Shown here: positions 10,719 through 53,597 of the stretch, piece by piece | How the letters are laid out: each line of letters begins with the position of its first letter | Numbering within the stretch: position 1 is the stretch's first letter | DNA from: a virus | Taxonomy: Duplodnaviria > Heunggongvirae > Uroviricota > Caudoviricetes | Length of the DNA: 64,000 nt | Reading direction: 5' to 3' (one strand) | IMG/VR virus record: IMGVR_UViG_3300029305_011445 | Notes under the pieces: generated by a model | Told to the model about the DNA's origin: nothing | Databases searched by the model: none | Seen by the model: only the letters and a program-made list of their open reading frames with translations | Made by a program: the position numbers and the translations under genes

Positions 10719-10737
10719 ATATATATTGTTTATGTAT

Positions 10738-18851: not shown

Positions 18852-19070
18852 TTACGCAACCATAAATAATTGCCACAATTTTGGATGTTGCTCAATATTT
18901 TCTGCCAAACATTTTGCAATAACTGCATTTGCATTAGCCCCACTTCCGGTATCCATTACATAACCATGTTCCGAAATTAAAACGGATTTCATAAATTTTG
19001 CAAAATCTTCATCAGACATGTAACCTTTGTTACAAGCGTCGTTTAATAATTCTTTTGTTTCTTTGTTCAT
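18852..19070 (-). CDS. hypothetical small protein
   Basis: 72 aa; promoter motif 19111-19122. Confidence 0.45.
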   Translation of the reverse strand: MNKETKELLNDACNKGYMSDEDFAKFMKSVLISEHGYVMDTGSGANANAVIAKCLAENIEQHPKLWQLFMVA

Positions 19071-19110
19071 ATTTGTTTGTCTCCTTTTTCTTGAATATAT
19101 TTATTGATAC

Positions 19111-19122
19111 AATAAATATGGT
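19111..19122 (-). promoter_or_regulatory. consensus promoter motif
   Basis: exact copy upstream of 18852..19070 operon. Confidence 0.6.
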
Positions 19123-19175
19123 TTGTAATATAAAAAAAAGAGATCAAACCATAATTGGTTTAACCTCTTGTTGCT

Positions 19176-19661
19176 CTACACTTCTTGTTCACAGTATCTT
19201 TTAAATCGATTTGTACATTTATCATCTGGCTCATTGTTACAAGACCCATACAGTTCTTTACATTTCTCGCACGTAAGAACTTCTGATAATAATATGATAG
19301 AACAATCTCCATGTTCCATTAATTCTTCAAATTCAGATATGAATTCGTAAAAAGTAACAGCGTCCATTTCTTGTATTTGATCACAAATTGATTGTTTCAT
19401 TTTATCTAAATTGTTCATTAGAATGTTCTCCTTTATTAAATTAGATTCATTTGATATGTATTCTTTGTGTAAATTATCCGCAAACTCTTTGTCGCAAAAT
19501 ATTTCTCCCATTTTAATTACATGAGCAATATTTCTGGGCATTGTTCCGGTCTCCCATTTTGAAATCGTGTTTTCTGAAACACCAATTAATTCTGCAAGTT
19601 GTTTTTGCGTCAGACTGAGTTGTTTTCGTTTTTGCTTAATACTACTATTAAATTCATTCAT
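19176..19661 (-). CDS. XRE-family HTH transcriptional regulator with Cys-rich C-terminus
   Basis: LSLTQKQLAELIGVSENTISKWETG helix-turn-helix; GGAGG RBS; upstream motif is a G-to-A variant (CCATAAATATGAA, 19678-19690). Confidence 0.75.
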   Translation of the reverse strand: MNEFNSSIKQKRKQLSLTQKQLAELIGVSENTISKWETGTMPRNIAHVIKMGEIFCDKEFADNLHKEYISNESNLIKENILMNNLDKMKQSICDQIQEMDAVTFYEFISEFEELMEHGDCSIILLSEVLTCEKCKELYGSCNNEPDDKCTNRFKRYCEQEV

Positions 19662-19803
19662 TTGTTCTTTATTGCCTCCATAAATATGAAACAGTTTTCT
19701 TTAGTTATGGGTTTAATTATATCACAATCAATATATTATTCCAAATATAAAAACCACCAGAAATTCTGATGGCTTTTAATTTTGCATATTCGCTTTGTAA
19801 TTT

Positions 19804-21162
19804 TTACAATGTCATTCGTTTTGCGGCTTCCACACATAAAGCACTTCTCTGCGCCTCTTCTTCTTCGAACGTAATCTGTGCACAAAGTTTTGAGCCCTTC
19901 ATCTTTTCTGCAGCAAATACTAATCCATTGTTTCGTTTGTCTAAGTATCTGGCATCAATCTGATTCGGATCACCCAGTAACACCACTTTTGTTCCTTCTC
20001 CCGCTCTTGTTACAATTTCAAGTGCCTGATGTACTGTCATATTCTGTGCTTCGTCGACAATCAAATATGTGTTTGGCAATGAACGTCCGCGAAGATATCC
20101 TACTGCCGCAATATTTACAATGCCCTTACCCATAACGTATTCAATCTGTTCTGCGGCAAGATCTAAGTCGCGTTCTTTGCCTGCAAAAATAGTTTTCATA
20201 TTATCCATAAATGGAGCAATGAGTGGATCCATTTTTTCTTCTAATGTTCCAGGTAAGAAACCTAAATCATTGTCAGAAATTGTATTGGTACGAGTAATCA
20301 TGACACTTTCGTATTTCTGATCTTTGTTTCGTTTCTTATTATCCATTGATGCATAAGTCTGTTCTAAGGCGCATGCAATTGCAAGTAAAGTTTTACCGGT
20401 ACCAGCCGGACCTTTACAAATAACAAGTGGAATTTCATCAGCCGGAGCTAAAAGTGCATGCATCAGCATTTTCTGTGGTGCATTTCTGCCTTCGATTCCA
20501 TATGCTGTTAACTCTTTATCATTAAGACGATATAACATTCCACTCTTGTGAACACATAATGCAGAAACATTACCATTCTTTAAAATTACATATTCATTTT
20601 CTTCTAATTCAATATCTTCTGGAACCGGATATTCTGTTGCTCCATAAATATCAAACATTGGGTCTGGCCACTCAATGAAGCATCTTCCTGTATATGCTTC
20701 ATCATCTTCGATCATTTCATTTTTGTAACTCTGTACTGTTACACCACATGCTGATGCATTGATTCTCATCGAAATGTCATTTGTAACAAGAATTACCGGC
20801 ATTGGGTACTTGTCACTCTTTTCCATACCAAGGACTGCAGCGATGATTCGATTATCTGCCACAGATAATGAATATCCATAAGGCAAGCAGTCTTCAATAC
20901 AATTTGTTTCAAGAAAAAGTGTTCCACCATTATGAAGATCAACGCCATCGATAAGGTTACCTTCCTGTCGCAAGGCATCTAAGATTCGAATACTCTCTCT
21001 GGCATTGAATCCAGCTTCACCTTTGTCGTTTTTGTGAGTATCTAGTTCCTGCAATGTTGTACCTGTGATAACTACATAGTTATCCGCAAATCCATAGATT
21101 GCATTTGGACTTGTCATTAAAATGTTTGTGTCGAGAACGTAAGTTTTCTTTGAGTTTTCCAA
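19804..21162 (-). CDS. PhoH2-type protein (N-terminal PIN nuclease domain + PhoH-like P-loop ATPase)
   Basis: YVLDTNILM PIN start; GPAGTGKT Walker A; DEAQN Walker B-like. Confidence 0.85.
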   Translation of the reverse strand: MENSKKTYVLDTNILMTSPNAIYGFADNYVVITGTTLQELDTHKNDKGEAGFNARESIRILDALRQEGNLIDGVDLHNGGTLFLETNCIEDCLPYGYSLSVADNRIIAAVLGMEKSDKYPMPVILVTNDISMRINASACGVTVQSYKNEMIEDDEAYTGRCFIEWPDPMFDIYGATEYPVPEDIELEENEYVILKNGNVSALCVHKSGMLYRLNDKELTAYGIEGRNAPQKMLMHALLAPADEIPLVICKGPAGTGKTLLAIACALEQTYASMDNKKRNKDQKYESVMITRTNTISDNDLGFLPGTLEEKMDPLIAPFMDNMKTIFAGKERDLDLAAEQIEYVMGKGIVNIAAVGYLRGRSLPNTYLIVDEAQNMTVHQALEIVTRAGEGTKVVLLGDPNQIDARYLDKRNNGLVFAAEKMKGSKLCAQITFEEEEAQRSALCVEAAKRMTL

Positions 21163-21237
21163 TTGAAAATGCCTCCTGCAATATAATAATATATTTTATT
21201 AGGCTCAAAACTTCTTTTATCGAAGTCTATCGCATGA

Positions 21238-21249
21238 AATAAATATGGT
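21238..21249 (-). promoter_or_regulatory. consensus promoter motif
   Basis: exact copy upstream of PIN-PhoH gene. Confidence 0.6.
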
Positions 21250-21305
21250 TTTCGCTTGTTGCAAAGCAGAAAAAAAACAGCCACTTTGCAGTGACTGTTT
21301 ATTAA

Positions 21306-21914
21306 TTACTCGTTACTATTTTCAGAATTGCATTCTTTCCAGACTGTATAAGCTTTTTTCTTATTCAGCCAATGATAAGCCATTTTTCTCGCTTTTGAAG
21401 AGCCATACTGTTTCGAAAAATAAGATTCTTCATATGCCATATTTTCTAACATAACCGTAACAAATGATTTTGTTTTGGAATCCATTGCAACCCCGGCGTC
21501 ACGTTTTTTATACCACCATTGCAATTCACCGTCTAAAGTAAAACTTTTCCCACTATATACTTGTCCGGCAGCAAGATAATCACACACTAATTCCAATGCG
21601 TATTTGAATGGCATCTGCAAATGTACTGTTCCTTTGTCAAACGAGTCCTGCCAATATTCGTAATGGTGCTTATTACGGCCTTTATGATGTAGCCAAGCCA
21701 TAGATATTCCATTATTTGCTTCTTTACACGCGTCAATTGGAGAGCGAGTGCCTTGATAATATTTTACTGATTCAAAAAACTCCGTTGGTGAATATTTGGA
21801 TAAGTCATGTACAATTCCCTGCCAATAAAGACCGGCTCTTATGCAGTTTTTGAATACAGCAATCTTATGTTTTGTAATAGTAACAAAATGTTTCCATATA
21901 TTTTTTATTTTCAT
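21306..21914 (-). CDS. hypothetical protein (possible HD-like metal-dependent hydrolase)
   Basis: 202 aa; GIVHDLSKY resembles an HD motif but is weak; no consensus motif upstream, only the UvrD-like gene's terminator hairpin. Confidence 0.45.
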   Translation of the reverse strand: MKIKNIWKHFVTITKHKIAVFKNCIRAGLYWQGIVHDLSKYSPTEFFESVKYYQGTRSPIDACKEANNGISMAWLHHKGRNKHHYEYWQDSFDKGTVHLQMPFKYALELVCDYLAAGQVYSGKSFTLDGELQWWYKKRDAGVAMDSKTKSFVTVMLENMAYEESYFSKQYGSSKARKMAYHWLNKKKAYTVWKECNSENSNE

Positions 21915-21969
21915 GGTTTTCTCCTTTTAAACAAACCCCAGAAACATATGTTACTGGGGCTCGTTTTTC

Positions 21970-24171
21970 TTATAAATCTAATGTTAACTGTTTTGCGTTT
22001 TTGGTTAACGAATCATATTGTTTCTTTTCTGCATCTGTAAGAGGTCTACTCTTCCCTGATGCTTTGGATGATTTTGTCGTTTTTCCACCACCTTTGTATG
22101 ACGGTGAATATGGACTTCGTTTTGTCATTCCTAATCCAGTAACAGTTGATCCGGAAGCCACAGATGCATCAAGTTCTGCCATGCGTTTTGCTTTCGCTTC
22201 TGCACGTTTATTTCTTGCACTTTCATTTTTGGCGGCACGGCGTTCTAATTCACGCTGTGCTTTTGCCTGTTTCATTGCAAGAATTTCAGCCTCGAACTCT
22301 TTTTCTTTGTCGGTTACTTTGTATAAATCATGTAAAAACTGATTGTATGTTTCACCGGCAAACTCATCCGAATATGCTACGTACTCGCTAACAACATGTA
22401 ACAGTTCTTTAGCTCTCGTCATAGATACGAATAAAAGACGTCGTCTTTCTTCTACTTCCATCACATTACGAGCTTTGTGAAGTACACGACTGTCGTAATC
22501 AGAGATACTATTGATTACAACTGGCCATTCAAGACCCTTAGATGAATGAGCAGTAATCAGTGTCACACCTTCATATCGCTGATCCATCTTTGCTTCCGTA
22601 TCCTTGCCAAATCGTTTAAAATTCTGAATAAATTCGATCTCTTTTGCAAGAGCAGATTTGTTCGGATCATCCGGATCAATCTTTGTATCTTCATCGTAAA
22701 CCATATCTAACCATTTCTGATATAATTCATCGTCTCCGATATTAATTGCTTCCAGATATTCGTGCCACTTACGTAACTGGTTCTCAGGTGTCATAAGTTC
22801 AAAGCTACTGAAGCTGCGACGTAATTCATCGATTTCAGCTGAAATCTCATCATCAGTCAACTCTTCGTAAATTTTGCCATCGTATTTTGGTACGAGATAT
22901 TCAAAATAACTCTGAGTTGCGTCCGGATCAAAGAACGCGTCACAAAGTTTCATTGCACCACGGACACGGCTATTTTCGATCAATTTAACCGGAGCCATAA
23001 TTACCCATGGAATATTAGCTTTTGATAACGCTGCAGAATACTTACCAAGATCTTTTTTGCCAAAAGTGATTACCGCAATATCGCGGTATTCATATTTGCC
23101 AGACTCGATAAGTTCTTTGATAATTTCAACAGAATGTTCGATTTTTTCAGATTCTGTCTCAAATCCTTTGATAACTGTTTTTCCACCTTTGCCTTTTGCA
23201 GCAATAAGAGGCTTGTCGATTCTGTTTACATTGAGTGCAACAAGTTTATTTGCCTGTTCAATGATTTCTTCGTAAGAACGATAATTCTGTGACATTAATA
23301 ATTTAGTTACAGGCTTGCCGATTTTTTCCTCGAAGTGAATCATATTATCAGGATTTGCGTTACGGAATCCATAAATTGACTGATTATCGTCACCGATTAC
23401 CATAATGGATTCGATAGATCCACCGTTGTCAGTCATACATGCTACCAAACGTTTTACAAATTCCATATTCATATCGTTGGAATCCTGGAACTCATCGATT
23501 ACCACATGTTTGATTTTCAAACTGTTTAAGTAATCTGGGTTTAAATCTAAAAGTTTAAGACCCATTGGCTCCTGATCAGCAAATGTAATCAAGCCTTCAC
23601 TGTTTAAAATCTTATTGTATGTATCATACAAATCAATGAAACAAGAAATAGACTGATCTGACATTTTACTATAAATACCAGCATCTTGGCATAACTCTTT
23701 TACTTTTTCGGCAGCACCGACCTCTGTGACATCAAGATTGGCGGATTTGATTAAATCAAATACTTTCAAAGCAATTGTTAATGCGCCCTGTGCTCCTTTT
23801 GCACCGGCGTTCATTTCAACAGGAATTGCATAATTCAAACCGTCTACTTTATTTTCACCGGTAACAAGTGGCAATACTTTTGCCGCAACACGAGTTGGAT
23901 TCGTATCAATTACAGTTGGAACATTCAAAAATCCCAACTGGTCATGAAATTTCTTAATTAAATCCATATCAAACGCATTAAATGTCATAGTTGGAATTTT
24001 TTCTGGATCTACATGAAATCCTTTTGTTGCAAATGCACCTGCTAATCTTTCGCGCATTTCCCTTGCTGCAGCATCCGTAAATGTTACTAATAAAATGTGG
24101 CTTAAAATGCTTTCCAGCCAGCTTTCTTTTTGCGCCTGAGTTGCGGTGCGTTTCTTAGTTTCTTTCGCCAT
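21970..24171 (-). CDS. UvrD/PcrA-like SF1 helicase homolog lacking Q-motif and Walker A
   Basis: motifs Ia (VTFTDAAAREM), II (VIDEFQDSN), IV (QNYRS), V (VTLITAHSSKGLEWPVV), VI (LLFVSMTRAKELLHV) present but protein starts ~35 aa downstream of where GxxGxGKT would be; lysine-rich C-terminal tail. Confidence 0.75.
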   Translation of the reverse strand: MAKETKKRTATQAQKESWLESILSHILLVTFTDAAAREMRERLAGAFATKGFHVDPEKIPTMTFNAFDMDLIKKFHDQLGFLNVPTVIDTNPTRVAAKVLPLVTGENKVDGLNYAIPVEMNAGAKGAQGALTIALKVFDLIKSANLDVTEVGAAEKVKELCQDAGIYSKMSDQSISCFIDLYDTYNKILNSEGLITFADQEPMGLKLLDLNPDYLNSLKIKHVVIDEFQDSNDMNMEFVKRLVACMTDNGGSIESIMVIGDDNQSIYGFRNANPDNMIHFEEKIGKPVTKLLMSQNYRSYEEIIEQANKLVALNVNRIDKPLIAAKGKGGKTVIKGFETESEKIEHSVEIIKELIESGKYEYRDIAVITFGKKDLGKYSAALSKANIPWVIMAPVKLIENSRVRGAMKLCDAFFDPDATQSYFEYLVPKYDGKIYEELTDDEISAEIDELRRSFSSFELMTPENQLRKWHEYLEAINIGDDELYQKWLDMVYDEDTKIDPDDPNKSALAKEIEFIQNFKRFGKDTEAKMDQRYEGVTLITAHSSKGLEWPVVINSISDYDSRVLHKARNVMEVEERRRLLFVSMTRAKELLHVVSEYVAYSDEFAGETYNQFLHDLYKVTDKEKEFEAEILAMKQAKAQRELERRAAKNESARNKRAEAKAKRMAELDASVASGSTVTGLGMTKRSPYSPSYKGGGKTTKSSKASGKSRPLTDAEKKQYDSLTKNAKQLTLDL

Positions 24172-24209
24172 AGTGTATATCCTCCTTTTAATTGTTTTTA
24201 CTATTGCTA

Positions 24210-24221
24210 AATAAATATGGT
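24210..24221 (-). promoter_or_regulatory. consensus promoter motif
   Basis: exact copy upstream of UvrD-like gene. Confidence 0.6.
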
Positions 24222-24278
24222 ATATGAAAGATAAAAAATAAAAGGCCGAAACGTTTTCGTAACGACCTTTGGTTAAAG

Positions 24279-26033
24279 CTAAATCTTAAATTTGTTTACT
24301 TCTGTGCTTAATTTTGCAGCAATATTACTACAATTATCAGCTTCTATATTAATATCTGAAACAGAAGTTGTTAAATCAACGGTATGCGAAGCAACATTAC
24401 TGATACCGTTTGCAGTTTCTTCGATAGCAACACTGATTGCTTCGCTATTCTCTTTTAAGCCCTGCATATGAACATTGAGATTTTTGCATTCTTCTGCAAA
24501 AGTATTCATAATACTACTTAAGTGTTTAGCATCACGTTGATAATTTTCACTGGTTGTTAATAACTTATCATATCCAATCATAGCAACAGATTCCATAAAT
24601 GTTAACATTTCCTCTGCCTTTTGAGCCAATTCTGTAACTGTTTGAATAACATCTTCGCTTACGGTTTGGATTTCGGTCGCAGTTTCTGCTGAATGAGTTG
24701 CTAATTTTCCGATTTCACTTGCTACAACTGCAAATCCGCGACCAGCTTCTCCGGCTCTTGCTGCTTCTATTGATGCGTTTAATGATAACAAATTTGTCTG
24801 AGTGGTAATCTCTAAAATATTTTCAGTCATTGTCTTGATATCTTCAACTCGTTTGGACCGTTCAATCATTTCACTTACAGCAACACGCATTGCTTCAGCT
24901 TGTGTTTTCGCATCAATCTGCTCTTTTGTCGCCGTTTCATTAATAGTGTTTGCATTATTAGCGATTTTCAAGGTATTACTTTCTTCAATGCCTGCAGCTT
25001 CCGCAACCTGTTCTACTGATGTAACCACATCTTTAATAGCAGTATCCATCTGCGTCAAGGAAGCACTGATTTCTTCAATTGCAGCACCCATTTGTTCCAT
25101 TGTTGCAGAGACATCTGTGACTCTTGTTTCTGCATCTTTTAATTGTCCCGAAACCGTGTTTGACGATGTATGAAGCTCTGTTGAATTGTCATTAATATTT
25201 ATCATAATTCCGCGAATATAGACTAAAAATTTATTTACGTTATCAGCAATTAATTCTAATTCATCTCCGGTAGCTACATTAATTGTTTGAGTTAAGTCGC
25301 CTTCGTTACTTGCTAATTCGTGTAACTTTTCATTTACTCTCTTCATATTTTTAATGATTCTGTTTACAATTAAATAAACAATGATTGTGGCAACAATAAC
25401 ACCGAGTCCGGATACAGTAATTAATTCGATTACAACAGATTGTATATTATCCTTAATATATGTAGCGTCATAATCACATCCTAAGATGCCAAGTTGATTA
25501 CCTTCGCTATCATAAACTGGAACATAAGATGTGATATAAGCTTTATCACCATCCAATGTAAATTCTGATTCAGATAAGGCTGTTCCATTAAATACAGATA
25601 CCAAATATTCGTAATCTACTTCAAATAATTCTCCGATTTGTGCACGTTCTTCTGAATCTTCATCACTATCGACTCCATAGAATACATCTGTACCATTGGT
25701 ATAAAGAGTATATAAATAAGCGACGTTATATGTATTTTTAATTCTAGTAAGATCTTCCAATACGTCTTTATATTCTTTCGTTTCTTCAGCACCTTTATTT
25801 AATTTACTAAGAGAATCAGTATTAATTGATTTAGAAGCAAATTCAGCAACAATCATAGCTTCTTCACCACCAAGTGTTAAAAAGCCTTCGCTGATTTTAT
25901 AAAATGACTGTAATGTTAACATGGAACATAAAATAATAATGATAATGTTGATTGGTATAAGAATCTGCCATCTGATACTTAATTTTCTGCTCCCGTTATT
26001 CATTCGATGAAAAATACTTTTCTTTTTATTCAT
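24279..26033 (-). CDS. methyl-accepting chemotaxis protein with periplasmic sensor
   Basis: two TM helices around a sensor domain, then HAMP and signalling domain with [31 protein letters not shown]. Confidence 0.85.
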
Positions 26034-26086
26034 ATGATCCTCCTATACAAATTGTTAGACCTGATAGATATCAGGTCATAACAATA

Positions 26087-27865
26087 TCAATCCAATTTAA
26101 ATTTACGAACTTCATTTGTAAGTTCATCTGCAATCGCCTTATTATCCAATGCTGTTTTTTGAATTTCTGATACATCTGCATTTATCGCAGTTGTTGTATT
26201 TGCGATGCTGTTAACACCAGTTGTACTTTCTTCAATTGCAATATTGATCGCATTCATGTTTTCTAAGATCTTATGAATTGCCTGCTCAATATAATCCGTA
26301 GAATTGCAAAAAGCTTCCATCTGACGTCCCATTGTTTCAACATCTGTTTTATATGCAATACCTGTGTCTTTTAATTCATCGTATCCTTTCATTGCAACTT
26401 CATCTAAAAATGTAAGCATTCTTTCAGTTTGTTCGGCTAAAAGTTCTACAGCTGCAATTACTTCGTCGCTAACTTTTTTAATTTCATTCGCTGCATCCGC
26501 AGAAGTGTTTGCGAGTTTTCCAATTTCTGTTGCAACAACAGCAAATCCGCGACCGGATTGTCCGGCACGCGCGGCTTCGATACTTGCATTTAATGCTAAA
26601 AGATTTGTTTGGCTTGCAATTTCCAAAATATTCTCTGTTAATTTTGAAATTTGTGTTACAGCGTTGGAGCGTTCAAGACTTTCCTTGACATCAATTGTTA
26701 ATTGATCTGAAAGTTCTTTTGCTTTCGTAATATTTTCATCAACCTGTGACTCAATATTTGAAGCCTTTTTAACCGTTGCACGTGCGTCCATTTCACTCTG
26801 TTTTGCATATTTGGCAACATCGCCGGTTGTATCTGATACCTGTTTAATTAACGAACTAATTTCCACAATTGATGCACTCGTTTCTTCCATTGCAGCACTC
26901 ATCTGTTCCATTGTAGAAGAAACATCTGCGATTTCACTTTCTGAATCTGTAACCTTTTCTGTGATTGCAACTACAGAATCAGATAATTTAAGAGAATCAT
27001 CGCGAATACTAACCATAATAGCTCTAATATATGACAACAATGTGTTTACGTTTCCTGCAATTAATTCTAATTCATCGCCCGAATGAATATCTAAAGATTG
27101 TGTTAAGTCTCCGTTGTTGTTAGCAAGTTCACATATTTTTTCATTTACTTGGCGAATATTTTTAATGATGCCTTTTACGATTAAGCAAATAATTAATGAA
27201 TCAAATAGCAATGTTACAACTAGCACAAGAACCAATCTCGAAATCATTTGATATCTTATAGTCAAAATATTAGATGCGTCATAATCAATACATAATACTG
27301 CAGTTACATTTTCATCTGCATCAATAATTGGCTGATATACGGATAACAAATGTACATCATCTCCAAGATTTTTAATTACGGGGCTATTTGCTACAGTTCC
27401 GGAAAACGCTTTATTGATTAAATCAGAATCAACTAAATTCGTAGCAGCAGTTCCTACTTGTTTCGATGAATCAATATCGCTATTTAATCCATAAACAATT
27501 GAACCATTATTCGTTTTGTGTAAAGTATAAAACTGTTTCAAGTGTCCCTGTTCTAATAACATTTGTAGCGTTGTATTTATTGAAATAGCGTTTTCTTCAC
27601 TTAACAAGTTTTCATAATTAAGAGCTTCTGCGTCAATCAAATCTGACGCAATGGCCGCTATAGATTTTGCATTTTCAATTGCTAGATCACGATATTTATC
27701 GTTATAACCTTTTACGCTACTGTAACCAACTACAAAACAACCTGATATTACAACTAAAATAACAGGAACGAGTATTTTAAGTTGCAACGAAAATCGTCTT
27801 ACCTTTTGTTTTTCTTTTTTATCCCTCATTTTCTTTCTCTCCACTAAAAATTTTACTAAATTCAC
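26087..27865 (-). CDS. methyl-accepting chemotaxis protein (paralog)
   Basis: same architecture; [32 protein letters not shown]; start overlaps stop of upstream small ORF (ATGA). Confidence 0.85.
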
Positions 27866-28044
27866 TCACCTAATTCATATGTTACTTGTAACTGCACTTT
27901 ATTTTTAACAGCATTTTCGATTAACAGATTTAATATATCGCTTTTACTTAATCCGGTATCTTCATGCCATTTTTCTAACATTTTCATATTATCCGGCGTA
28001 AAACCAACACAGGTCTTAATAGATGCGTTTTGTTTTTTTCGCAT
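27862..28044 (-). CDS. small protein cotranscribed with sigma factor (possible RHH-like regulator)
   Basis: ATG 28044 with AGGAG RBS 14 nt after the sigma stop; 60 aa; [15 protein letters not shown] helix. Confidence 0.45.
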
Positions 28045-28058
28045 GCGTGTTCTCCTTT

Positions 28059-29102
28059 CTATAAAAACTGTTTCAATTCGGTATAAGCTTTTCCGGTTCG
28101 GCAAAACTTAATAAAACGAGCTTCTACTTGACGAACACGTTCCCTTGTGAGACCATGATAATCGCCAATTGCTTCGAGAGTCTGAATTGTACGGCCATGT
28201 AATCCGAATCTTTTATACAAGATGTCTCTATTTCGGTTAACATTTGCAGGATTGGTTCGCCCACGCTCAAGAAATCTCTCAATCAATTCATCAAATTTTT
28301 CTGCCAGTTCTTTGTTTTCAGCAACAGCACTAATATCAAAATTTTCATCTGCAATGAAATCAATCATTTCAGATGATTCATCAATATCAGTAGATATAGC
28401 GCGGTTTAACGAATCTGTGTTTGCATTAAAATACGCACTGATAATATTGTTATACTGAAAGTCATTACATCCGAGTTTTTCTACCACATATTCTTTCGGT
28501 GGTAGAACATTAGAATTTGTTTCATCTTGAAACTCTTTAACGACTCTTGCGTAACGATAGACTTGTTCACTCATATGAACAGGAATTCGGATAATTGTAT
28601 CACCATCCATAATCGCTCTTGTAATGGACTGGCGAATCCAATGATAAGCATAGGTTGCAAATTTGAACCCCTTATCCGGGTCGAAACGATCAATGGCTTT
28701 CAAAAGTCCAAAGTTTCCTTCCATAATAATGTCCAATTCTGTAAGAGTTTTAGTATGTTTCATATATTTTTTTGCAACATAAACAACAAGTTTTAAGTTG
28801 TGTAAAAAAATCTTTTCTCTTGCTTCTGTGTCGCCTTCTTTTGCTTTTCGTGCCAAGTCACAAACTTCTTCATTTGATAACAACTGGTATTTTGCGATTT
28901 CTTTTAAATAACCAGCCATGTGATCAGATAAGTAGTGAGACTGGAATTCAACGCTTTCTTCAACCTTTTTAGAAGAAAGTGATTCGATTTCTGATAATTC
29001 GTCATTGTTATTAGTTGCATTATATTCATATAAAGATTCGGTTTCAAAATTTCCCTGATCCAAATCCTCGTGCTCTAAAACAAATTCATTCGTTAATGTC
29101 AT
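28059..29102 (-). CDS. RNA polymerase sigma-70 family factor with ~100-aa acidic N-terminal extension
   Basis: region 2 DIIMEGNFGLLKAIDRFDPDKGFKFATYAYHWIRQSITRAI; region 4 LTRERVRQVEARFIKF; exact promoter motif 29146-29157 ~45 nt upstream. Confidence 0.85.
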   Translation of the reverse strand: MTLTNEFVLEHEDLDQGNFETESLYEYNATNNNDELSEIESLSSKKVEESVEFQSHYLSDHMAGYLKEIAKYQLLSNEEVCDLARKAKEGDTEAREKIFLHNLKLVVYVAKKYMKHTKTLTELDIIMEGNFGLLKAIDRFDPDKGFKFATYAYHWIRQSITRAIMDGDTIIRIPVHMSEQVYRYARVVKEFQDETNSNVLPPKEYVVEKLGCNDFQYNNIISAYFNANTDSLNRAISTDIDESSEMIDFIADENFDISAVAENKELAEKFDELIERFLERGRTNPANVNRNRDILYKRFGLHGRTIQTLEAIGDYHGLTRERVRQVEARFIKFCRTGKAYTELKQFL

Positions 29103-29145
29103 AAATTCCTCCTATTGCGAAATATTTTATTTCGCGCCTTCCTGT

Positions 29146-29157
29146 TATAAATATGGT
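29146..29157 (-). promoter_or_regulatory. consensus promoter motif
   Basis: ACCATATTTATA ~45 nt upstream of the sigma-factor gene. Confidence 0.6.
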
Positions 29158-29282
29158 TATGAGTTTTGCAAACTAATCCGCAAAATTAATTGTTAAATTA
29201 TATCCGTTTTATATAACGCTCATATCCAAAATATATTAGGTTCAAAAATGCGCTAAACGAAGGTAAAATTTAATTTTATCAA

Positions 29283-29300
29283 CTTGGAAGTACTTCCAAG
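29283..29300. promoter_or_regulatory. perfect 18-bp palindrome CTTGGAAGTACTTCCAAG plus three GTACAAAA repeats (29302-29372) in the sigma/parA divergent region
   Basis: seen directly; ~160 nt upstream of parA, in a 300-bp ORF-free region. Confidence 0.6.
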
Positions 29301-29462
29301 CGTACAAAAACAGTTAAAACGTACAAAAGGAAGTGCTTCGCATAGAACAAAACAAGGAGAAATGTACAAAAAGAAATATATTTAAAATATTCTTATTGCA
29401 TATAACTGAAATATCGCTTATAATTTTCACTGTTAAAAAACTTTTGCGGGGAGAAAAAAGAA

Positions 29463-30332
29463 ATGATTATTACAACAAATACATCAAAGGGTGGCGAAAC
29501 AAAAACAAGCAGTACTGTCACGTTCGGTTCAATATTAGCTGTTGCCGGATATAAAGTGTTACTTGTTGATTCTGATCCGCAGCAAAATTTAACATATTTA
29601 TGTGCGACAGAAGATACAAATGTGAACCCTCCAATTGTTATTTATGATTTACTATTGCGAAGTTCAGTTGATGATAGTGAGCTAAAAGATGCAATTGTGA
29701 CAACAAAAATAAAAAACATGGATATGATTCCAGCAAATGATAGTTTGTATTTAGCACCATATCATTTATACGACAAAGTAGTTCACGAAGGCGAGACACA
29801 AAGTATATTAAATTTACGAAACAACTTAATGCGCATTCAAGAAATATTCGAATATGATTACATACTTATTGACACTCCACCTACGAAATCATATGCAGTT
29901 AATGCAACACTTGCTGCAGCAGATTATGTTGTTACCGGTATTTCACCGGATAATTTATCGTGGCAGGGTTTATCTGCGATGATACAAGCAGTTGATGACA
30001 ATAATGTTACTTATGCAAGAGATACGCAAGTTGCAGGTGTATTTTTAACAAGAGTCAACCCTCGTACAAATCGATACCGAGAAATGAGTGCTGGTTACAA
30101 ACAACTCTTAGGAGATATTTTCTTAAATAGTTTTGTTCGTACAAATGAAGAAATGGGTAAAGCGAACTCTTATATGGTTCCTATTGTATTGTTTAATAAA
30201 CGATGCGAAGTGATCGAGGACTATATTAATGTAATGATTGAATTAGGATTGCTTGACACAAATGATTGGCATTATCTCGAATTGCGGAAGTATTTAAGAA
30301 GCAACAATAGGCAGAAAGAAAGCGAGGATTAA
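29463..30332 (+). CDS. parA: ParA/MinD-family partition ATPase
   Basis: deviant Walker A-like SKGGETKTSS near N-terminus, LLVDSDPQ, ParA-like size (289 aa), immediately followed by parB. Confidence 0.75.
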   Translation: MIITTNTSKGGETKTSSTVTFGSILAVAGYKVLLVDSDPQQNLTYLCATEDTNVNPPIVIYDLLLRSSVDDSELKDAIVTTKIKNMDMIPANDSLYLAPYHLYDKVVHEGETQSILNLRNNLMRIQEIFEYDYILIDTPPTKSYAVNATLAAADYVVTGISPDNLSWQGLSAMIQAVDDNNVTYARDTQVAGVFLTRVNPRTNRYREMSAGYKQLLGDIFLNSFVRTNEEMGKANSYMVPIVLFNKRCEVIEDYINVMIELGLLDTNDWHYLELRKYLRSNNRQKESED

Positions 30333-30335
30333 TAT

Positions 30336-31433
30336 ATGGCAGCAAACAGACAACCTATGATGCCGGGAATGACAAGTATCGGACAAATTGGAACAAGAGG
30401 TACCGGGTTAGGACAAATTCAGGCACAGAAAGCATCTGGTATCAATTATATTCCATACGATAATATTATCCCAAATAAGAAAAATAAACGATATGACCAA
30501 ATTGACATTGAATCGTTAAGTTATTCTATTGAAGATAGAGATTTGCTTCATAATTTAGTTGTTACGCCTTCCGAAACAAGTGGTATGTATGATTTAATAA
30601 GTGGTGAGCGAAGATGGCGCGCAATTGGACTGCTTAGAGATAGAAATCCAAAACGTTTTGAAGAATTATTTCCAGGTGGACTCATCCCATGTAAAGTTCA
30701 AGTACTCGATAATGTGGATGATGAAATTTCTTTGATAGTTGCAAACACTGAAGTTCGAAATATTAGTGTTAAAGATAAATTAAATGATGTAAGGCGGTTG
30801 GCAGAATTATACGCAATCAAATATGAAAATGAACCAAAGACAAATGTTTCTGAAATGATTGCAAAGCAATTAGCAATGTCAGAACGTCAGATTCGTAAAT
30901 ATATGAGTCTTGACAAACTAGTTCCAGAATTAATGCAAGCATTTGATGATGATATTTTAAATATCGAAGCAGCAAGTAAAATTGCTCTTCTAGGAGAGAC
31001 AGAACAATTGTATCTTGTTGATATATTAAACGAAACAGAAAAAATTACTGAAGATGATATTGTTGCTGCAAAGGCGTTACAGGTTCAAAAAGAGACTGCG
31101 TTAAAAGAAATCGATACAAAGCAGGAAGAAATTGCAGCATTAGAAGAAATGAAATCCATCGCAAAAACTACAGATGAAACTGAGTTCATTAATACTAGAA
31201 TTGAAGAACGTTTAAAAGCAATTGATGATACGAAGCAAAAATTATCTGATAGACAAATGCGAAAGCTTCGAAAAGTTGCGAAGGCTGGTAAAATTGTAGA
31301 TCAAACAACAGAAGCGATTGATAAACTCCAAAATATGATTGAACCAATCAAATCTGATACGACAATTATTCTTCGTCTTGAGATGCTACAAATGAAATTG
31401 AACCGATTGATTGAACAAGTAAAAAAAGAATAA
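30336..31433 (+). CDS. parB: ParB-family partition protein
   Basis: ParB/Srx N-domain GERRWRAIGLL; coiled-coil C-terminus; 3 nt after parA. Confidence 0.8.
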   Translation: MAANRQPMMPGMTSIGQIGTRGTGLGQIQAQKASGINYIPYDNIIPNKKNKRYDQIDIESLSYSIEDRDLLHNLVVTPSETSGMYDLISGERRWRAIGLLRDRNPKRFEELFPGGLIPCKVQVLDNVDDEISLIVANTEVRNISVKDKLNDVRRLAELYAIKYENEPKTNVSEMIAKQLAMSERQIRKYMSLDKLVPELMQAFDDDILNIEAASKIALLGETEQLYLVDILNETEKITEDDIVAAKALQVQKETALKEIDTKQEEIAALEEMKSIAKTTDETEFINTRIEERLKAIDDTKQKLSDRQMRKLRKVAKAGKIVDQTTEAIDKLQNMIEPIKSDTTIILRLEMLQMKLNRLIEQVKKE

Positions 31434-31449
31434 TACAAATAAAGAAAAT

Positions 31450-31469
31450 GGAGCAGGATATCCTGCTCC
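31450..31469. terminator. bidirectional terminator between parB and SPFH gene
   Basis: GGAGCAGGATATCCTGCTCC perfect hairpin between convergent genes. Confidence 0.7.
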
Positions 31470-31475
31470 ATTCTT

Positions 31476-32510
31476 TTAACGGTTCTTAAATTTCTGTTCC
31501 AATCTTTCTTTTGCTTCATTAACTGTCTGAGAAATATTAGAAAGATTTTTTGTAACATTACTGCGCTCCGGTTCGTCACAACACTCATCACTATGAGTTT
31601 CGTCCACTTTCGATTTCGGAGTTGTGTCAATATCTTTTGTGATATTCAACACTTCACCAATGTATGAAAGGTTTGATGCGCTTTCTGTCAAATTTGTAGG
31701 AATAATAAGTTTTGTAGCGCGACCATCTCCCAATGCTTTTAATGCATCAAGCTGTCTCAATTGCATTACAGCCTGGTTTACAGGAACTGAAGTTAATTTA
31801 CTCAAGCCTTCTGCTTCGGCTTCGTATTTGAGACGAATACTCTCTGCCTCACCAGTTGCTCTTGCGATAGCGGCGTCACGTTCTGCTTCTGCCTTGAGAA
31901 TCATTGCTTGCTTATCGCCTTCTGCACGCATTATAGATGCCTGTTTATGAGCTTCTGCTTCAAGCAATGTCTGTCGTTTTTCACGTTCTGCACGCATCTG
32001 TTTTTCCATGGATTCTTGAATATCTTTTGGTGGAATAATATTTTTCAATTCTACACGATTAACTTTGATACCCCATTTATCTGTTGCTTCGTCCAAGATT
32101 TGACGCATTTTTACATTAATAACGTCTCTGGATGTTAAAGTTTCGTCTAATTCTAATTCGCCGATAAGGTTTCGTAATGTAGTGGCAGTAAGTGTTGCTA
32201 ATGCTTCGATCGGATTATTAACACCGTATGTGTAAAGCTTTGGATCAAAAACATTGTAATATACAACAGTATCAATCTGCATTGTAACATTGTCTTTTGT
32301 GATTACCGGCTGTGGCGGGAAATCGCCTAACTGTTCTTTTAACGAGACACGCTTAGCTACTCGATTAAGAACAGGGATCATAAAATGTAAACCATTGTTC
32401 CAGGTTGCTTGATATGATCCTAAAAATTCAATTACATAAGCATTTGCTTGCGGTACAATTTTAATGCAACTACATACAAGCAAAATCAAAAGAATAACAA
32501 CATAACCCAT
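31476..32510 (-). CDS. SPFH/band-7 (stomatin/HflC-like) membrane protein
   Basis: N-terminal TM, SPFH core, EAEA-rich coiled coil; variant promoter motif 32578-32592. Confidence 0.8.
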   Translation of the reverse strand: MGYVVILLILLVCSCIKIVPQANAYVIEFLGSYQATWNNGLHFMIPVLNRVAKRVSLKEQLGDFPPQPVITKDNVTMQIDTVVYYNVFDPKLYTYGVNNPIEALATLTATTLRNLIGELELDETLTSRDVINVKMRQILDEATDKWGIKVNRVELKNIIPPKDIQESMEKQMRAEREKRQTLLEAEAHKQASIMRAEGDKQAMILKAEAERDAAIARATGEAESIRLKYEAEAEGLSKLTSVPVNQAVMQLRQLDALKALGDGRATKLIIPTNLTESASNLSYIGEVLNITKDIDTTPKSKVDETHSDECCDEPERSNVTKNLSNISQTVNEAKERLEQKFKNR

Positions 32511-32655
32511 TTGGTTACCTCCTTATTTTGTAATAAATTTTATAATGTCAAACTTTAACAAAACGAAGTTTGATCTCGTATTAAATATGGATTTGATATT
32601 AACAAAGTAAAATCATTTACATATTGAATCAGCAGATTTATCAAGTGTGATGCAT

Positions 32656-32667
32656 ACCATATTTATT
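32656..32667 (+). promoter_or_regulatory. consensus promoter motif
   Basis: exact copy upstream of 32705..33817; divergent from the SPFH gene's variant motif. Confidence 0.6.
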
Positions 32668-32704
32668 TTTGTAATTAAAATTGAATACAAAAGGAGAATA
32701 AAAC

Positions 32705-33817
32705 ATGGATCAGAAAGTTAACAAATGCGTTGGTAAAGGAAATGGTGAAAATCATAGCAATTGGGAACGAAAATTTAAATCATTACCATTGATTGTAGAT
32801 TATGAAGAATTCGTTAAATTCGGTCGCAAAATCGCAAATGATGATATGAACTCATGGGATCTACGTGCTGTTTGTGTTGCAATGCTTACGGCGCAAATAG
32901 ATAACCGTGAAGATGTGATAGAGAAATGCCTGGATCGTTTAATGACCGATTCACAAACGCGTAGCGCAATTACAAATTGTATAAACCGTAATTACACGCG
33001 TTATGGAATTGATGAATTACGTAAAATATACGATTCGATTTCTTATGACGATGTGCATTGTGCTATTGAAGCTGCAACTAGAAACATTTGGAAATATCAA
33101 ATGAAGCCAGAACCGTTATTACGTTGGTGTGATGGAACAATTCCATATCAACAGGGTAGATTTGTAAATACGTTTTTAAGTTGTAGACTTAAAGACGCGT
33201 ACAAACAATATACTCTAAGTATTGCGAAAGAGTTTTATCCAACATTATCTTACGGCTCGTTAAAACTTTATATCAAAATTAGAAAAGAGTCAAAGTACAT
33301 GATAACATTATCAACAGAGACAACGTCTTCTTTAGATACGTTTTGTTTAAATCATGACATCAAGGCAACTTGGGGACAAATAGTAGCTATGCAAAAGAGT
33401 TTTGGTTACGAAACGGAAGAAGATAAAGTTGCGATTGCTCGCCATGAACAAGCCGTTTGGAATGCGACGCATAGGAGTGAAATATTGTTTTGGAAACAAA
33501 CAGATGCAAATAATATTACGGAAGACGAACTTGAAGATACATTGTTATTGATCCGTGATAAAATGCAGTATGACGATGCAGAAATTGCATGTCTTAGAAA
33601 CTGGGTTAATACAGCTCGGTATGAAGGTCGTGCGATATCGAGTTTTGCATGTATGCCGGTTACATTTGATAAAAGGTATCGAATCCGAAAATCGGATAGT
33701 GACATCGTTATTAGTAAACGTGTTCGAAAAGATATTATTAATGTATTAGGTTCAGATTTAAACAGAGTGACCAAAACGTTATCTAAAAATCTCGGTGGAA
33801 AAATCATTATACCGTAA
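32705..33817 (+). CDS. hypothetical protein
   Basis: 370 aa; exact promoter motif 32656-32667; AAGGAG RBS. Confidence 0.55.
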   Translation: MDQKVNKCVGKGNGENHSNWERKFKSLPLIVDYEEFVKFGRKIANDDMNSWDLRAVCVAMLTAQIDNREDVIEKCLDRLMTDSQTRSAITNCINRNYTRYGIDELRKIYDSISYDDVHCAIEAATRNIWKYQMKPEPLLRWCDGTIPYQQGRFVNTFLSCRLKDAYKQYTLSIAKEFYPTLSYGSLKLYIKIRKESKYMITLSTETTSSLDTFCLNHDIKATWGQIVAMQKSFGYETEEDKVAIARHEQAVWNATHRSEILFWKQTDANNITEDELEDTLLLIRDKMQYDDAEIACLRNWVNTARYEGRAISSFACMPVTFDKRYRIRKSDSDIVISKRVRKDIINVLGSDLNRVTKTLSKNLGGKIIIP

Positions 33818-43664: not shown

Positions 43665-43676
43665 TCCATATTTATT
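43665..43676 (+). promoter_or_regulatory. consensus promoter motif
   Basis: TCCATATTTATT upstream of the 43700/MCP operon. Confidence 0.55.
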
Positions 43677-43699
43677 TCAAATAATCAAAGAAAGGAGCT

Positions 43700-44008
43700 A
43701 TGTACGTGGGCCGATGGATTACGTTAAAACTTACAAATAATTGGTACATTAAAACAAATGGTATTGAATTTAAGTTGCAACAAAAAATCATGAAAGAAAA
43801 TGAACATGGAGAGATGGTTGAAAAGCGTAGCAAATCAAAATATTTTGGGACACTCAGTGATTGTATCGAGTGTGCTGCAAGATTAATTGCATGCGAAAAT
43901 GCTGAATCAGACACGCTTGAATTAAAAGAGTATATCAAGCTTGTAGATCAAACGTTTGAAACATTAAAAGCATTAGTTGTTTCTCTGGAAAAACATGATG
44001 AAAAATAA
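43700..44008 (+). CDS. hypothetical protein
   Basis: 102 aa, AAAGGAG RBS, promoter motif 43665-43676; 20 nt before the MCP gene. Confidence 0.5.
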
Positions 44009-44028
44009 TTAAAAAGGTGGGTTTAAAA

Positions 44029-45639
44029 ATGAGGGAAAAGAAAAGCAGAAAATCGTTATTGTCTTCGTTTAAGACACAATTACTGGCAATGAGTATTTTA
44101 CCAATGTTATTTTCGTTATTGGTTGTTCTTATTGTAGCAATTACTGGGATGAGAAATCTTGCACAAACTATGATGTATGACAAATTTGAATGTACATCAA
44201 TTTTAGTGCAAAACTCCTCTCAGGATACAATTGATGCGGAAATGAAGGCGATTGCAGAAGAACAGGATATGATACTTTCATTCTTGAAGCAGGGAAAGAT
44301 TGTTTATTCAACCAATCTGGAATTAATTGGATCTGCTTCCGATATTACCGAAACAGAACATTCATTAGTAAGACATACAGTTAATAACATTGAATATTTA
44401 TCAGCAACTTTTGAAATGCGGGATGGATCGACATTACTTGTTAGTGAAGAACGTAATACTTATTTAAATTTATTATCTCCGTATCAAGTGAAAATGTTTT
44501 GGACCGGCGTTGCGATGTTAATCAGTGCGATCATAATTATCTTCGTATTAAGCACTCGTATTGCAAAAATACTTGGGGCTGTAAGAGATATCGTTCATGA
44601 GGTTGGTAGGGGTAATCTTAATAATGATTATGATGAGAAATTATTATCTCGAAAAGATGAAATTGGTTCTATTTATCGAAATACAAAAAGCATGGATGAA
44701 ATGTTTATGGACGTTGTGTCAAAAATGCGATCAACGATTAATGGATTAAATGATTCTGCAGAAACTATTAAAGTATCTGTAGATACTTGTCTTGAAAATA
44801 CGAACGGAATAGAATCAGCTGTTGAAGAAGTTGCGCAAGGTGCCTCACAACAAGCAAATGAGTGTACAACCGGAACAGGTGCTACTGCAGAAATTAATCA
44901 GTTTATAGATGGTGTTGTTATCGAATCAAATGGGCTTAAAGCGGTTTCTGATAACATGTTCAGATTGAAAGATGTATCTCTTGAATCATTAAATCAACTG
45001 GTTGAGCATAATGAGGACAACACAATTGCAATAAAAGATATTGCGAAACAGATTGCAGAAACGAATGAATCGATCACAAATGTAATTGAAATCATTCAAA
45101 AGATTGAACAAATTAGTAGCCAAACAAATTTACTTTCGTTAAACGCGTCTATTGAAGCAGCAAGAGCTGGAGAAGCAGGACGTGGTTTTGCGGTTGTAGC
45201 GAGTGAAATTGGGAAACTTGCGGAACAAACATCAGCGTTGACAAAAGAAATTACAGATCATGTTGCAATTCTTAATTTAAATTCGGAAAATTCATTGCAG
45301 ATGATGTCCGGAGTTAGTGAGAGCGCTATCGCACAGTCGAAATTAATTACGTTGACCAAAGATGGTTTCTCTGAATTAGATCAAAATATCAATCAATCTG
45401 TTTCTAGCATTAATGCCATCGCTAAAGCAATGGATGAGTTATCTACTCAGTCTGCAAATTTAGTTGATACATTATCAAGTTTATCTGCAATCTCTGAGGA
45501 AAATGCAGCATCCGCAGAAGAGTGCTCTGCATCTGTTGTATCTCTTAATGGCACCATGGAAGATTTGAAGCAAAAGGTTAATGTGCTCGAAGGGAATAAA
45601 AATGCATTAATTAAACTTGTGGAATTTTTCCATGTTTAA
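44029..45639 (+). CDS. methyl-accepting chemotaxis protein
   Basis: start moved to ATG 44029 (AAAGGTGG RBS); TM helix, [35 protein letters not shown]. Confidence 0.85.
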
Positions 45640-52667: not shown

Positions 52668-52854
52668 TATCTTTTGAAGAATAAGAGAATCCATACCGAA
52701 CTGGATCCAGACGTTCTGTCTTGCGGGTTTCTTTTGAAAACGGATAATCAAATGCAGAACACCATTCTCGTGTAGAAACAACACGGTTTGTTTTTATACA
52801 TTTTAAAAGCCCTGATGATTTGTTACAAAAACGACACATTATACAACTATCCAT
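52645..52854 (-). CDS. small Cys-rich protein overlapping 3' end of sigma gene (candidate anti-sigma or partner)
   Basis: ATG 52854 overlaps sigma stop (ATGGATAGTTGTATAA coupling); CIMCRFCNKSSGLLKC; the bidirectional terminator hairpin 52638-52667 is placed after this ORF, not directly after the sigma gene. Confidence 0.4.
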   Translation of the reverse strand: MDSCIMCRFCNKSSGLLKCIKTNRVVSTREWCSAFDYPFSKETRKTERLDPVRYGFSYSSKDKPLQRIP

Positions 52855-53597
52855 TGATTAACCTCCTTACTCTGTTTCATCTTGTTTAAAGCTTTTCTGT
52901 GAATCTGAGAAATTCTGGATTCGGTTACATTAAGAACCAGCGCAATTTCCGCAATTGTCATATCTTCGTAATAAATCATTCGAATCACGTCGCGTTCTCG
53001 GTCCGTAAGTTTGCTCATTGCTAAATCCAGTATGCGATGTAAATCTTCTTGTAGCGCATTTAATTCACAAACATTAAATGAATCATGACCCAGTATATCA
53101 AATGAATACTCATCACCATCTGGTGAGAATAAAATTGCATCCAAAGATGATGCCTCTTCTAAAGTAGCTAATTGTTCCAAATTCGTAAATTCTTTACTTG
53201 AAAGTTTACTAACAGATAACAACTGTTGACGAGTATAATTAGGACCGTATGTATCTTGTGCTATAATACAAAATTGTTTGAATCGCTTTTGTTGATCCCT
53301 GGTACTACGTTTAATCTGATCAAAAGTTCTTAAGTTATCAACAATAGACCCTTTGATCCTATGAGATGCATAAGTTTCAAATTTAACATCCAAAGACGGG
53401 TTGTATTTTTCAATCGCGTCAAGAAGACCTAAAATACCGAAGCTTTCATAATCCGACTGTTCTAAAAGATACGAAGCCGTTTTTGCATATAATTGTGCAG
53501 CCAAAAGCTTTACTAGACCGGCATATTCTTTTATCAATAATTCCCGATACCGGGGTTCTCCGGTCTCTTTATATAATTCAAGATTCGTTTTATCCAT
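52839..53597 (-). CDS. FliA/WhiG (sigma-28) family sigma factor
   Basis: 252 aa; region 2 ILGLLDAIEKYNPSLDVKFETYASHRIKGSIVDNLR; region 4 MTIAEIALVLNVTESRISQIHRKAL; variant motif AATAAATATGTT at 53625-53640. Confidence 0.8.
   Translation of the reverse strand: MDKTNLELYKETGEPRYRELLIKEYAGLVKLLAAQLYAKTASYLLEQSDYESFGILGLLDAIEKYNPSLDVKFETYASHRIKGSIVDNLRTFDQIKRSTRDQQKRFKQFCIIAQDTYGPNYTRQQLLSVSKLSSKEFTNLEQLATLEEASSLDAILFSPDGDEYSFDILGHDSFNVCELNALQEDLHRILDLAMSKLTDRERDVIRMIYYEDMTIAEIALVLNVTESRISQIHRKALNKMKQSKEVNQWIVV

Follow-up and report, generated by a model that had tools for sequence, protein, structure and literature searches.

We analyzed a 64,000-nucleotide (nt) stretch of DNA, here called the window, from the IMG/VR virus record IMGVR_UViG_3300029305_011445. 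Its minus strand carries a unit of four genes that is headed by a σ factor gene and ends with two genes for methyl-accepting chemotaxis proteins (MCP1 and MCP2). The unit spans ~4.9 kb and runs from a promoter box through the gene of the 347-amino-acid (aa) σ factor, a 60-aa open reading frame (ORF), MCP1 and MCP2 to an intrinsic terminator. We consider the chances about even that this locus is the transcription-control operon of the element that carries it. The σ factor would read a box that stands in front of most element genes, including its own, the small protein, a predicted ribbon-helix-helix (RHH) protein, would feed back, and the MCPs would ride along.

The four-gene unit and its proteins

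All four ORFs lie on the minus strand where the original prediction had placed them, as borne out by an ORF check and, for σ and both MCPs, by Pfam. The features are, from the promoter to the terminator:

29147..29172, minus strand: operon promoter box, a copy of the element-wide motif (TTTGCA at 29167-29172, a 10-nt gap, CCATATTTAT at 29147-29156)
29116..29136, minus strand: 5'-leader palindrome/hairpin, GCGAAATA-AAA-TATTTCGC, located past the promoter box and ahead of the ribosome-binding site (RBS)
28059..29102, minus strand: σ gene, RpoD/SigA-like, 347 aa, with Pfam Sigma70_r1_2, r2 and r4
27862..28044, minus strand: RHH gene (the small ORF), 60 aa, ATG start, AAGGAG RBS
26087..27829, minus strand: MCP1, 580 aa from the ATG at 27829 (592 aa from the alternative GTG at 27865)
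26051..26085, minus strand: hairpin in the spacer between MCP1 and MCP2, stable, without a proper U-tract, followed by UUUGUAUAGGAGG
24279..26033, minus strand: MCP2, 584 aa, with MCPsignal and HAMP domains
24231..24270, minus strand: intrinsic terminator closing the unit (stem 24241-24270, U-tract 24231-24240)

The promoter motif previously placed at 29146 corresponds to CCATATTTA(T) at 29147-29156 with TTTGCA upstream, and an equivalent box arrangement stands 5' of the σ gene on three contigs with related loci (L001, L005 and L185). Between 24221 and 29147, no motif copy with one mismatch or fewer occurs on the sense strand, in agreement with the claim that neither MCP gene has a consensus motif in front of it. 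The next exact copy lies past the terminator (24212-24220) and serves a UvrD-like gene. Within the unit, a hairpin with a U-tract was found only after MCP2. The folding energy (ΔG) is -8.0 for the leader hairpin (-3.6 ± 1.9 in shuffled sequences) and -17.1 for the spacer hairpin (-6.6 ± 2.4), and the latter may be a partial terminator, an RNA stabilizer or a processing site. Promoters of the σ28 type were sought 5' of the MCP genes and elsewhere in the window; none was found, and we rejected such promoters as drivers of the MCPs because the search of their upstream regions came back empty. Matches to σ70-like promoters are not enriched (40 versus 49.4 in shuffled sequence). One of them, an 11/12 consensus match (TTGAAA-17-TATAAT; 29019-29047, minus strand), falls within the first 30 σ codons. 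It may be due to chance, since more such matches in total are expected from shuffled sequence; were it active, the resulting transcript would lack the σ start codon.

The σ factor matched PF00140 (25.4 bits), PF04542 (55.2) and PF04545 (28.3) in Pfam, all past the cut-offs, and gave no Pfam Sigma70_r3 match. Residues 25-347, with PVHMxE of region 3.0 among them, are colinear with residues 61-370 of Bacillus subtilis SigA (7ckq), and in the Firmicute RpoD model, which has 370 positions, residues 35-347 match positions 72-369. Full-length NCBIfam matches stayed below the equivalog cut-offs (rpoS_proteo 205.1 versus 378.7; PRK09210 RpoD 197.2 versus 572). By its sequence, the protein is an RpoD/SigA-like σ factor of the group 1/2 type and a relative, not an orthologue, of RpoD and RpoS. 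It keeps IRQxITR, PVHMxE and TRERxRQxE, which we take to be the σ70 segments contacting the -10, extended -10 and -35 elements, and has the WW pair altered to HW. The unusual acidic N-terminal extension of ~100 aa that had been ascribed to this protein did not hold up. The segment before region 1.2 measures ~64 aa (16 D/E, 2 K/R, pI 4.05), is poorly conserved, is no longer than its SigA counterpart and varies from 36 to 67 aa among σ relatives. Since the alignments to SigA and to the RpoD model are colinear, it takes the position of region 1.1 and is not an extension. The profile search suggested for it gave no Pfam match to the region 1.1 domain (PF03979) and colinear matches of full-length RpoD/RpoS models. 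Membership in a defense system was considered and rejected: MzaA of the MZA system scored 185.5 versus a cut-off of 800, no Mza partner genes were found among the neighbors, and the PADLOC matches (MzaA, GajB) concern generic domains only.

The ATG of the small ORF stands 14 nt past the σ TAG, in line with the original description, and its AAGGAG RBS begins immediately after the σ stop codon. A phmmer search over 1.84 billion representatives retrieved only seven small relatives of 57-63 aa. (Near-)invariant in the family alignment are K-T-C-[IV]-x-[LFI], then N, L and W, then TGLSK, and then LI. Compared with the PDB, the family hidden Markov model matched the CopG repressor (1b01, 2cpg; E=0.019) over 36 residues that cover the strand, helix A and helix B, and also matched a designed RHH protein and MazE9. 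Pfam RHH_3/RHH_4 match just three of the eight members, below threshold (E 0.005-0.01). AlphaFold2, given the alignment, predicted helices at 17-30 and 34-47 (pLDDT 82.8), and the best Foldseek matches were CopG chains, so that of the two folds initially envisaged, RHH or anti-σ, structure prediction returned the former. The 60-aa protein thus has the RHH architecture of an N-terminal β-strand and two helices in ~45-60 aa, and past this minimal fold it carries an additional conserved, strand-like C-terminal segment (LQVTY; [LI]Q[VI] in the family). As modeled, it has an RHH (CopG/Arc-like) fold plus this extra segment. No anti-σ family match was obtained for it in Pfam, NCBIfam, PHROGs or PADLOC. 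It had originally been described as a candidate anti-σ factor or co-factor; its fold differs from that of all known anti-σ factors. Two other assignments were discarded: a DnaB_2 domain (Pfam 21.5 versus 22, sub-threshold) concerned the helix pair only, with RHH preferred, and the long repeat proteins P0124 and P0126 proved to be spurious helix-repeat matches.

Both MCPs contain PF00015 (98.5 and 99.8 bits) and HAMP, with a periplasmic sensor set between transmembrane (TM) segments that span about residues 20-45 and 195-225; their homologues carry an sCache_3_2 sensor. Judged by these domains, they are TM chemoreceptors with two TM segments, a periplasmic sensor, HAMP and an MCP signaling domain. 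The signaling tip motif QTNLL[AS]... is intact in both, as well as in a third chemoreceptor of the window (MCP3). We had to correct the reported overlap of an MCP1 ATG with the stop codon of the small ORF: the codon in question, at 27865, is a GTG. The most likely start is the ATG at 27829, which is favored by its GGAGAG RBS, by public gene calls (580 aa) and by the fit to the N-terminus of the L001 orthologue. Sequence comparison identifies MCP1 as the orthologue of the single MCP at the equivalent position in L001, with an identity of 53% over the whole protein, 38% in the sensor and 60% in the signaling domain. MCP2 is a paralogue that separated from MCP1 earlier, with 39% identity to it over the whole protein and 26% in the sensor.

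The promoter box and related loci

The 9-mer CCATATTTA occurs 39 times in the window, with 1.40 copies expected, and none of 100 shuffles reached this number. An RBS and a start codon follow 32 of the 39 copies at a median distance of 40 nt, and a hairpin with a U-tract precedes most of them. An upstream box stands at a fixed gap of 9-10 nt, as TTGYA in 13 sites and as TTG in seven more, while TTGYA at a gap of 8-11 nt is found at 2% of random positions. Through the motif, its spacing to the start codon and the preceding terminators, most genes of the element look like promoter-to-terminator cassettes of their own. The typical cassette comprises a U-tract terminator hairpin, often TTTGYAA, a gap of ~10 nt, CCATATTTA(T), ~25-40 nt, the RBS and the gene; examples are the sites at 24212-24220, 43666-43674 and 59002-59010.

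The motif was also found on related contigs, with 12 copies in 21 kb of L001, 8 in 14 kb of L005, 6 in 12 kb of L008 and 6 in 16 kb of L021. The motif or a one-base variant stands 5' of the σ gene in L001, L005, L185, L007 and L008, and its core is kept on related contigs with a σ identity of only 40%. The motif travels with this σ subfamily, which supports, short of proof, a σ factor that reads the box and activates its own gene. Two further contigs, L025 (a Brachyspira bin) and L103 (672 kb), were dismissed as motif-driven relatives, their CCATAT matches being chance occurrences in coding sequence.

All related loci were traced by exact-protein look-ups. Those that inform on the layout of the unit are given below with the identity of their σ factor to that of the window:

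L001, σ 60%: ParB-ParA divergent from σ, 61-aa ORF, one MCP, UvrD-like gene, PhoH
L005, σ 49%: ParB-ParA divergent from σ, 59-aa ORF, terminator, UvrD-like gene; no MCP
L185, σ 50%: σ, small ORF (frameshifted), terminator; no MCP
L018, σ 38%: σ, 58-aa homologue, different neighborhood

The RHH gene follows directly 3' of the σ gene, with the stop codon and then the RBS, in four independent lineages besides the window. The number of MCP genes behind it varies from two in the window to one in L001 and none in L005 and L185, where a terminator lies directly 3' of the RHH gene. Because the σ-RHH pair is kept while the MCP number changes, the pair is the core of the unit and the MCPs are its cargo, lineage-specific by this comparison and placed between the RHH gene and the operon terminator. 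The notion of chemoreceptors wired behind an element's σ factor is therefore valid for the window, where both MCPs are inside the σ-headed unit, but it does not describe a conserved design. In L185 (1216-1400), a frameshift interrupts the gene of the RHH homologue on a contig of 1.5x coverage, and the C-terminal strand segment is seemingly absent; the frameshift points to either an assembly error or a pseudogene.

Within window positions 19000-33000, the σ-RHH-MCP1 module diverges far more than the flanking backbone (49-60% versus 73-94%). Identities to L001 and L005, respectively, are 60% and 49% for σ, 59% and 58% for RHH, 82% and 79% for ParA, 76% and 73% for ParB, 83% and 81% for the UvrD-like protein and 94% and 78% for PhoH; MCP1 can be compared with L001 only (53%). 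The two sister element types are present in the same JGI samples.

MCP1-like genes of 49-51% identity exist in other contexts (L186, L103 and L104). In L186, a motif copy comes after the MCP gene. In L103 (ENA k141_293346, 672,646 bp; 10001-12804) and L104, it lies beside YjfB_motility, FliG_C and PilZ genes. The L103 MCP is 49% identical to MCP1, and nearby are a D12 methyltransferase, and a reverse transcriptase with an LRR_5 protein, resembling 1966-2862 of the window; most remaining ORFs of this contig are unannotated, and it shows no motif drive. The nearest named MCP relatives in public assemblies are ~40% identical. The sole named match listed is a metagenome-assembled genome of Agathobacter, which hints at a Lachnospiraceae-type host.

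The element and its other genes

The best description of the element, which measures at least 158 kb and is attributed to an uncultured low-GC Firmicute, is a large mobilisable plasmid-like replicon; judged from the 64 kb, it may also be a phage-plasmid. The identical σ-RHH-MCP stretch was found on 12 contigs from at least eight samples, the longest contigs being 135,915 and 157,780 bp. The element is present in JGI samples 3300031555 and 3300032167. A phage identity was rejected, since none of the eight large unknown proteins of the window matched PHROG structural families. No tRNAs or Rfam families were detected in the window. Megablast of the locus against plasmids and phages gave no match, and the viral, genome (two scans) and metagenome (two scans) contig collections contained no close relative.

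The ParA and ParB genes are divergent from the σ gene, and a MobV-type relaxase is encoded at 51206-52630 on the plus strand (96.2 bits versus a cut-off of 100). With tblastn, the σ factor reached at most 38% identity against plasmids and phages, no better than against host RpoD, and scanning species-representative genomes with σ-derived patterns returned no close σ relative. The adjoining ParA/ParB genes, parS-like repeats and MobV relaxase, together with the empty genome scan, support the original view that σ belongs to the element rather than to the host. On L006, a MobV/Mob_Pre relaxase (1-1122) is 31% identical to that of the window, and ParA is divergent from a σ gene that belongs to the subfamily of the window σ factor, with an Rce1-like gene and T2SSE/F-like genes behind it.

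The parS-like repeats and two further features of the window are:

29286-29297 and 29329-29340: two GGAAGYACTTCC palindromes in the parA-σ intergenic region, outside the operon
43666..45639, plus strand: second motif-driven unit, with a box at 43666, a 102-aa ORF and MCP3 (44029..45639)
52839..53597, minus strand: second σ factor, of the FliA/WhiG (σ28) family (TIGR02479, 177.6 bits versus a cut-off of 189.6)

No further exact or one-mismatch copies of GGAAGYACTTCC occur in the window. The palindrome is iterated three times in L001 (9559-10000) and ~12 times in L005 (3717-4697). L007, whose ParB has diverged, contains ~13 copies of another palindrome, TTGAACTAGTTCAA (6787-7880); the iterated palindromes measure 12-14 bp. 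Because they iterate beside parA and differ where ParB has diverged, they are probably parS centromeres, and for the same reasons this reading was preferred over GGAAGYACTTCC as an RHH operator.

The second motif-driven unit agrees with the earlier report of a third MCP, whose ATG at 44029 opens the second gene behind the motif. A one-mismatch motif copy, ACATATTTA, stands at 53637, 5' of the FliA-like σ gene. No che genes were found in the window. The FliA-like σ factor and the three MCPs suggest that the element interferes with host motility.

Other genes of the window encode UvrD-like, PIN-PhoH, Pnkp/RNA-ligase, PARP, RecJ and RecU proteins, two SPFH proteins and a cell-wall hydrolase. A cluster of nucleic-acid and stress enzymes (14736-16937, 10841-12070, 19804-21162 and 12179-13573) includes a kinase-phosphatase-T4 RNA ligase fusion (Pnkp-like), a PARP-domain protein, PIN-PhoH and a treble-clef zinc-finger protein with four DUF4379 domains; it resembles RNA-repair or counter-defense gene sets. 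The UvrD-like helicase (21970-24171, minus strand), whose gene adjoins the operon on its downstream side, has no Walker A motif (GxGKT), and its first residues fall at about position 46 of the UvrD model in Pfam. This N-terminus is also kept in L001 and L005, at 81-83% identity.

Mechanism, alternatives and known systems

If the locus is indeed the transcription-control operon of the element, the σ factor would bind host core RNA polymerase and guide it to the CCATATTTA promoters that precede most element genes. The promoter of the σ gene itself would be among the targets, which would result in positive feedback as in SigN of the B. subtilis plasmid pBS32. The RHH protein, produced in step with σ, would bind DNA near the σ promoter or at related sites and restrain or tune this loop. 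The MCPs, which have no promoter of their own, would be made in proportion to the transcriptional activity of the element, insert into host chemoreceptor arrays and use the host Che machinery. Host chemical sensing would thus probably be expressed together with the element's transcription program.

Several points weigh against this reading. The reader of the box, the RHH target, co-transcription and the start sites are all inferred, the last two from the sequence. The residues of σ for the -35, extended -10 and -10 elements are the canonical ones of SigA/σ70, so that host SigA could read the CCATATTTA promoters as well, and the FliA-like σ factor is a second candidate reader within the window. 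No clear conserved operator was found for the RHH protein beyond conserved AT-rich TATATA boxes, which lie 40-75 nt upstream of the promoter box in four lineages and are candidate sites. The leader palindrome, absent from L001 and L005, is ruled out as a conserved operator and its role is uncertain for this reason. The gene ahead of the RHH homologue in L021 is Rep-like and not a σ gene, and expression of MCP2 could be lowered by the stable hairpin that separates it from MCP1.

The idea of the original prediction, that the small protein acts chiefly by protein contact with σ as an anti-σ factor or specificity co-factor, can be likened to RHH antitoxins, which place the N-terminal ribbon on DNA and the C-terminal tail on the partner. 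It draws on the adjacency and tight translational coupling of the two genes in five lineages, on the parallel divergence of σ and RHH (60%/59% from L001, 49%/58% from L005) between flanks of 73-94%, on the extra conserved LQVTY segment and on the precedent of SigN, according to which a plasmid σ factor can be toxic and need restraint (PMC10601692). We nevertheless consider it unlikely, given that the protein has no likeness to anti-σ families in Pfam, NCBIfam or PHROGs, that all weighty sequence and structure matches are to DNA-binding RHH proteins, that the near-invariant ribbon residues K-T-C fit a conserved DNA target, and that the L021 homologue has no σ gene beside it. The CCATATTTA box could also be read by host SigA, perhaps aided by the RHH protein at the invariant CCATAT, or by the FliA-like σ factor, in which case the RpoD-like σ factor would have another task, such as competing for core polymerase. 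The canonical DNA-contact residues and the second σ gene would agree with this, as would the fit of about half of the boxes to TTGYAN-N16/17-TATTnn, which resembles the layout of a SigA promoter to which an invariant spacer element has been added, and the efficient competition of SigN with SigA (PMC10601692). However, element contigs with this σ subfamily (and L021) showed the box and near variants of it, whereas other inspected loci, such as L103 and L025, did not, and the box or a one-base variant precedes every σ gene of the subfamily examined. Moreover, a 9-bp invariant core is atypical for SigA promoters and the spacing is off the σ28 consensus, which leaves other readers a rather small chance.

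It seems very unlikely to us that the MCPs are expressed independently from unrecognized internal promoters, with the inter-MCP hairpin as a terminator and the operon a mere appearance. The stability of that hairpin, weak σ70-like matches inside coding regions and the related MCP1-like genes in other contexts (L186, L103) speak for such an arrangement. On the other hand, σ70-like matches are fewer than in shuffled sequence, neither a motif copy nor a σ28 promoter was found inside the unit, and the hairpin lacks the U-tract typical of the element's real terminators. Furthermore, only 33 nt separate the RHH stop codon from the MCP1 start (15 nt in L001), too little to accommodate a promoter. We also give little credence to σ and RHH forming a toxin-antitoxin-like pair for stability and control beside the partition locus. 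Here σ would be self-amplifying and potentially harmful, RHH would check it through promoter DNA and σ binding, and the chemoreceptors, and elsewhere the FliA-like σ factor, would have hitched on, so that host swimming follows the state of the element and might be steered toward niches that favor it.

σ factors borne by plasmids or phages are known, few of them with a defined regulon. The element described here apparently has a self-contained transcription system, in which an RpoD-like σ factor is combined with a 9-bp invariant core before most genes and terminators after most of them. Its RHH partner is conserved and has no described counterpart, and the MCPs are a clear case of sensory genes captured into a regulator's own operon. 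If the transcription-control model is true, gut-type Firmicutes that are still uncultured would harbor a large extrachromosomal element that shields its gene expression from the host and also reprograms host chemotaxis. The element would then be a source of orthogonal σ, promoter and regulator parts for Firmicutes.

The closest functional analogue, with no useful homology, is SigN (ZpdN) of pBS32. The sigN gene is transcribed from a SigN-dependent promoter in a positive feedback loop (PMC6751061, PMC10601692), the SigN regulon lies on the plasmid (PMC6751061), and over-accumulation of SigN is harmful through competition with SigA (PMC10601692). Control of SigN has been described via LexA and AbrB, without a co-transcribed RHH partner (PMC6751061, PMC10601692). 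Like SigN, the σ factor of the window is encoded by an element and its gene has a promoter of the element's type, here possibly read by σ itself. SigN, in contrast, is a two-domain protein of 199 aa, whereas the window σ factor has 347 aa, is RpoD/SigA-like and extends from region 1.2 to region 4; in a two-sequence BLASTP comparison, a stretch of 71 aa in region 2 is 28% identical between them (E 5e-5). The sigN operon contains no chemoreceptor genes, compared with two in the window unit. On pBS32 (L188, 21324-23582), sigN lies immediately upstream of the actin-like partition genes alfA and alfB, which parallels the position of the window σ gene beside parAB.

For the RHH partner, the closest analogues are CopG of pMV158 and omega of pSM19035. 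Unlike these, the window protein has no significant Pfam membership, carries the extra C-terminal segment and is paired with a σ gene instead of a replication, partition or toxin gene. Plasmid-borne MCPs include NahY on NAH7 and McpT on pGRT1, both from Proteobacteria and linked to catabolic or tolerance genes, and MCPs of mobile elements plug into the host Che pathway. We know of no plasmid-borne MCP inside a σ operon. The window differs from NahY and McpT in that two MCPs lie in the element's own σ operon, to which the element adds a third MCP and a FliA-like σ factor. Phage σ programs with a compact promoter are represented by T4 gp55, which uses TATAAATA, and SPO1 gp28. As in these phages, an element-encoded σ factor is found together with a short, near-invariant promoter element before many genes. 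In contrast to gp55 and gp28, the window σ factor is full-length and RpoD-like, not minimal and diverged, and its context is plasmid-like, with no phage structural genes found in the 64 kb.

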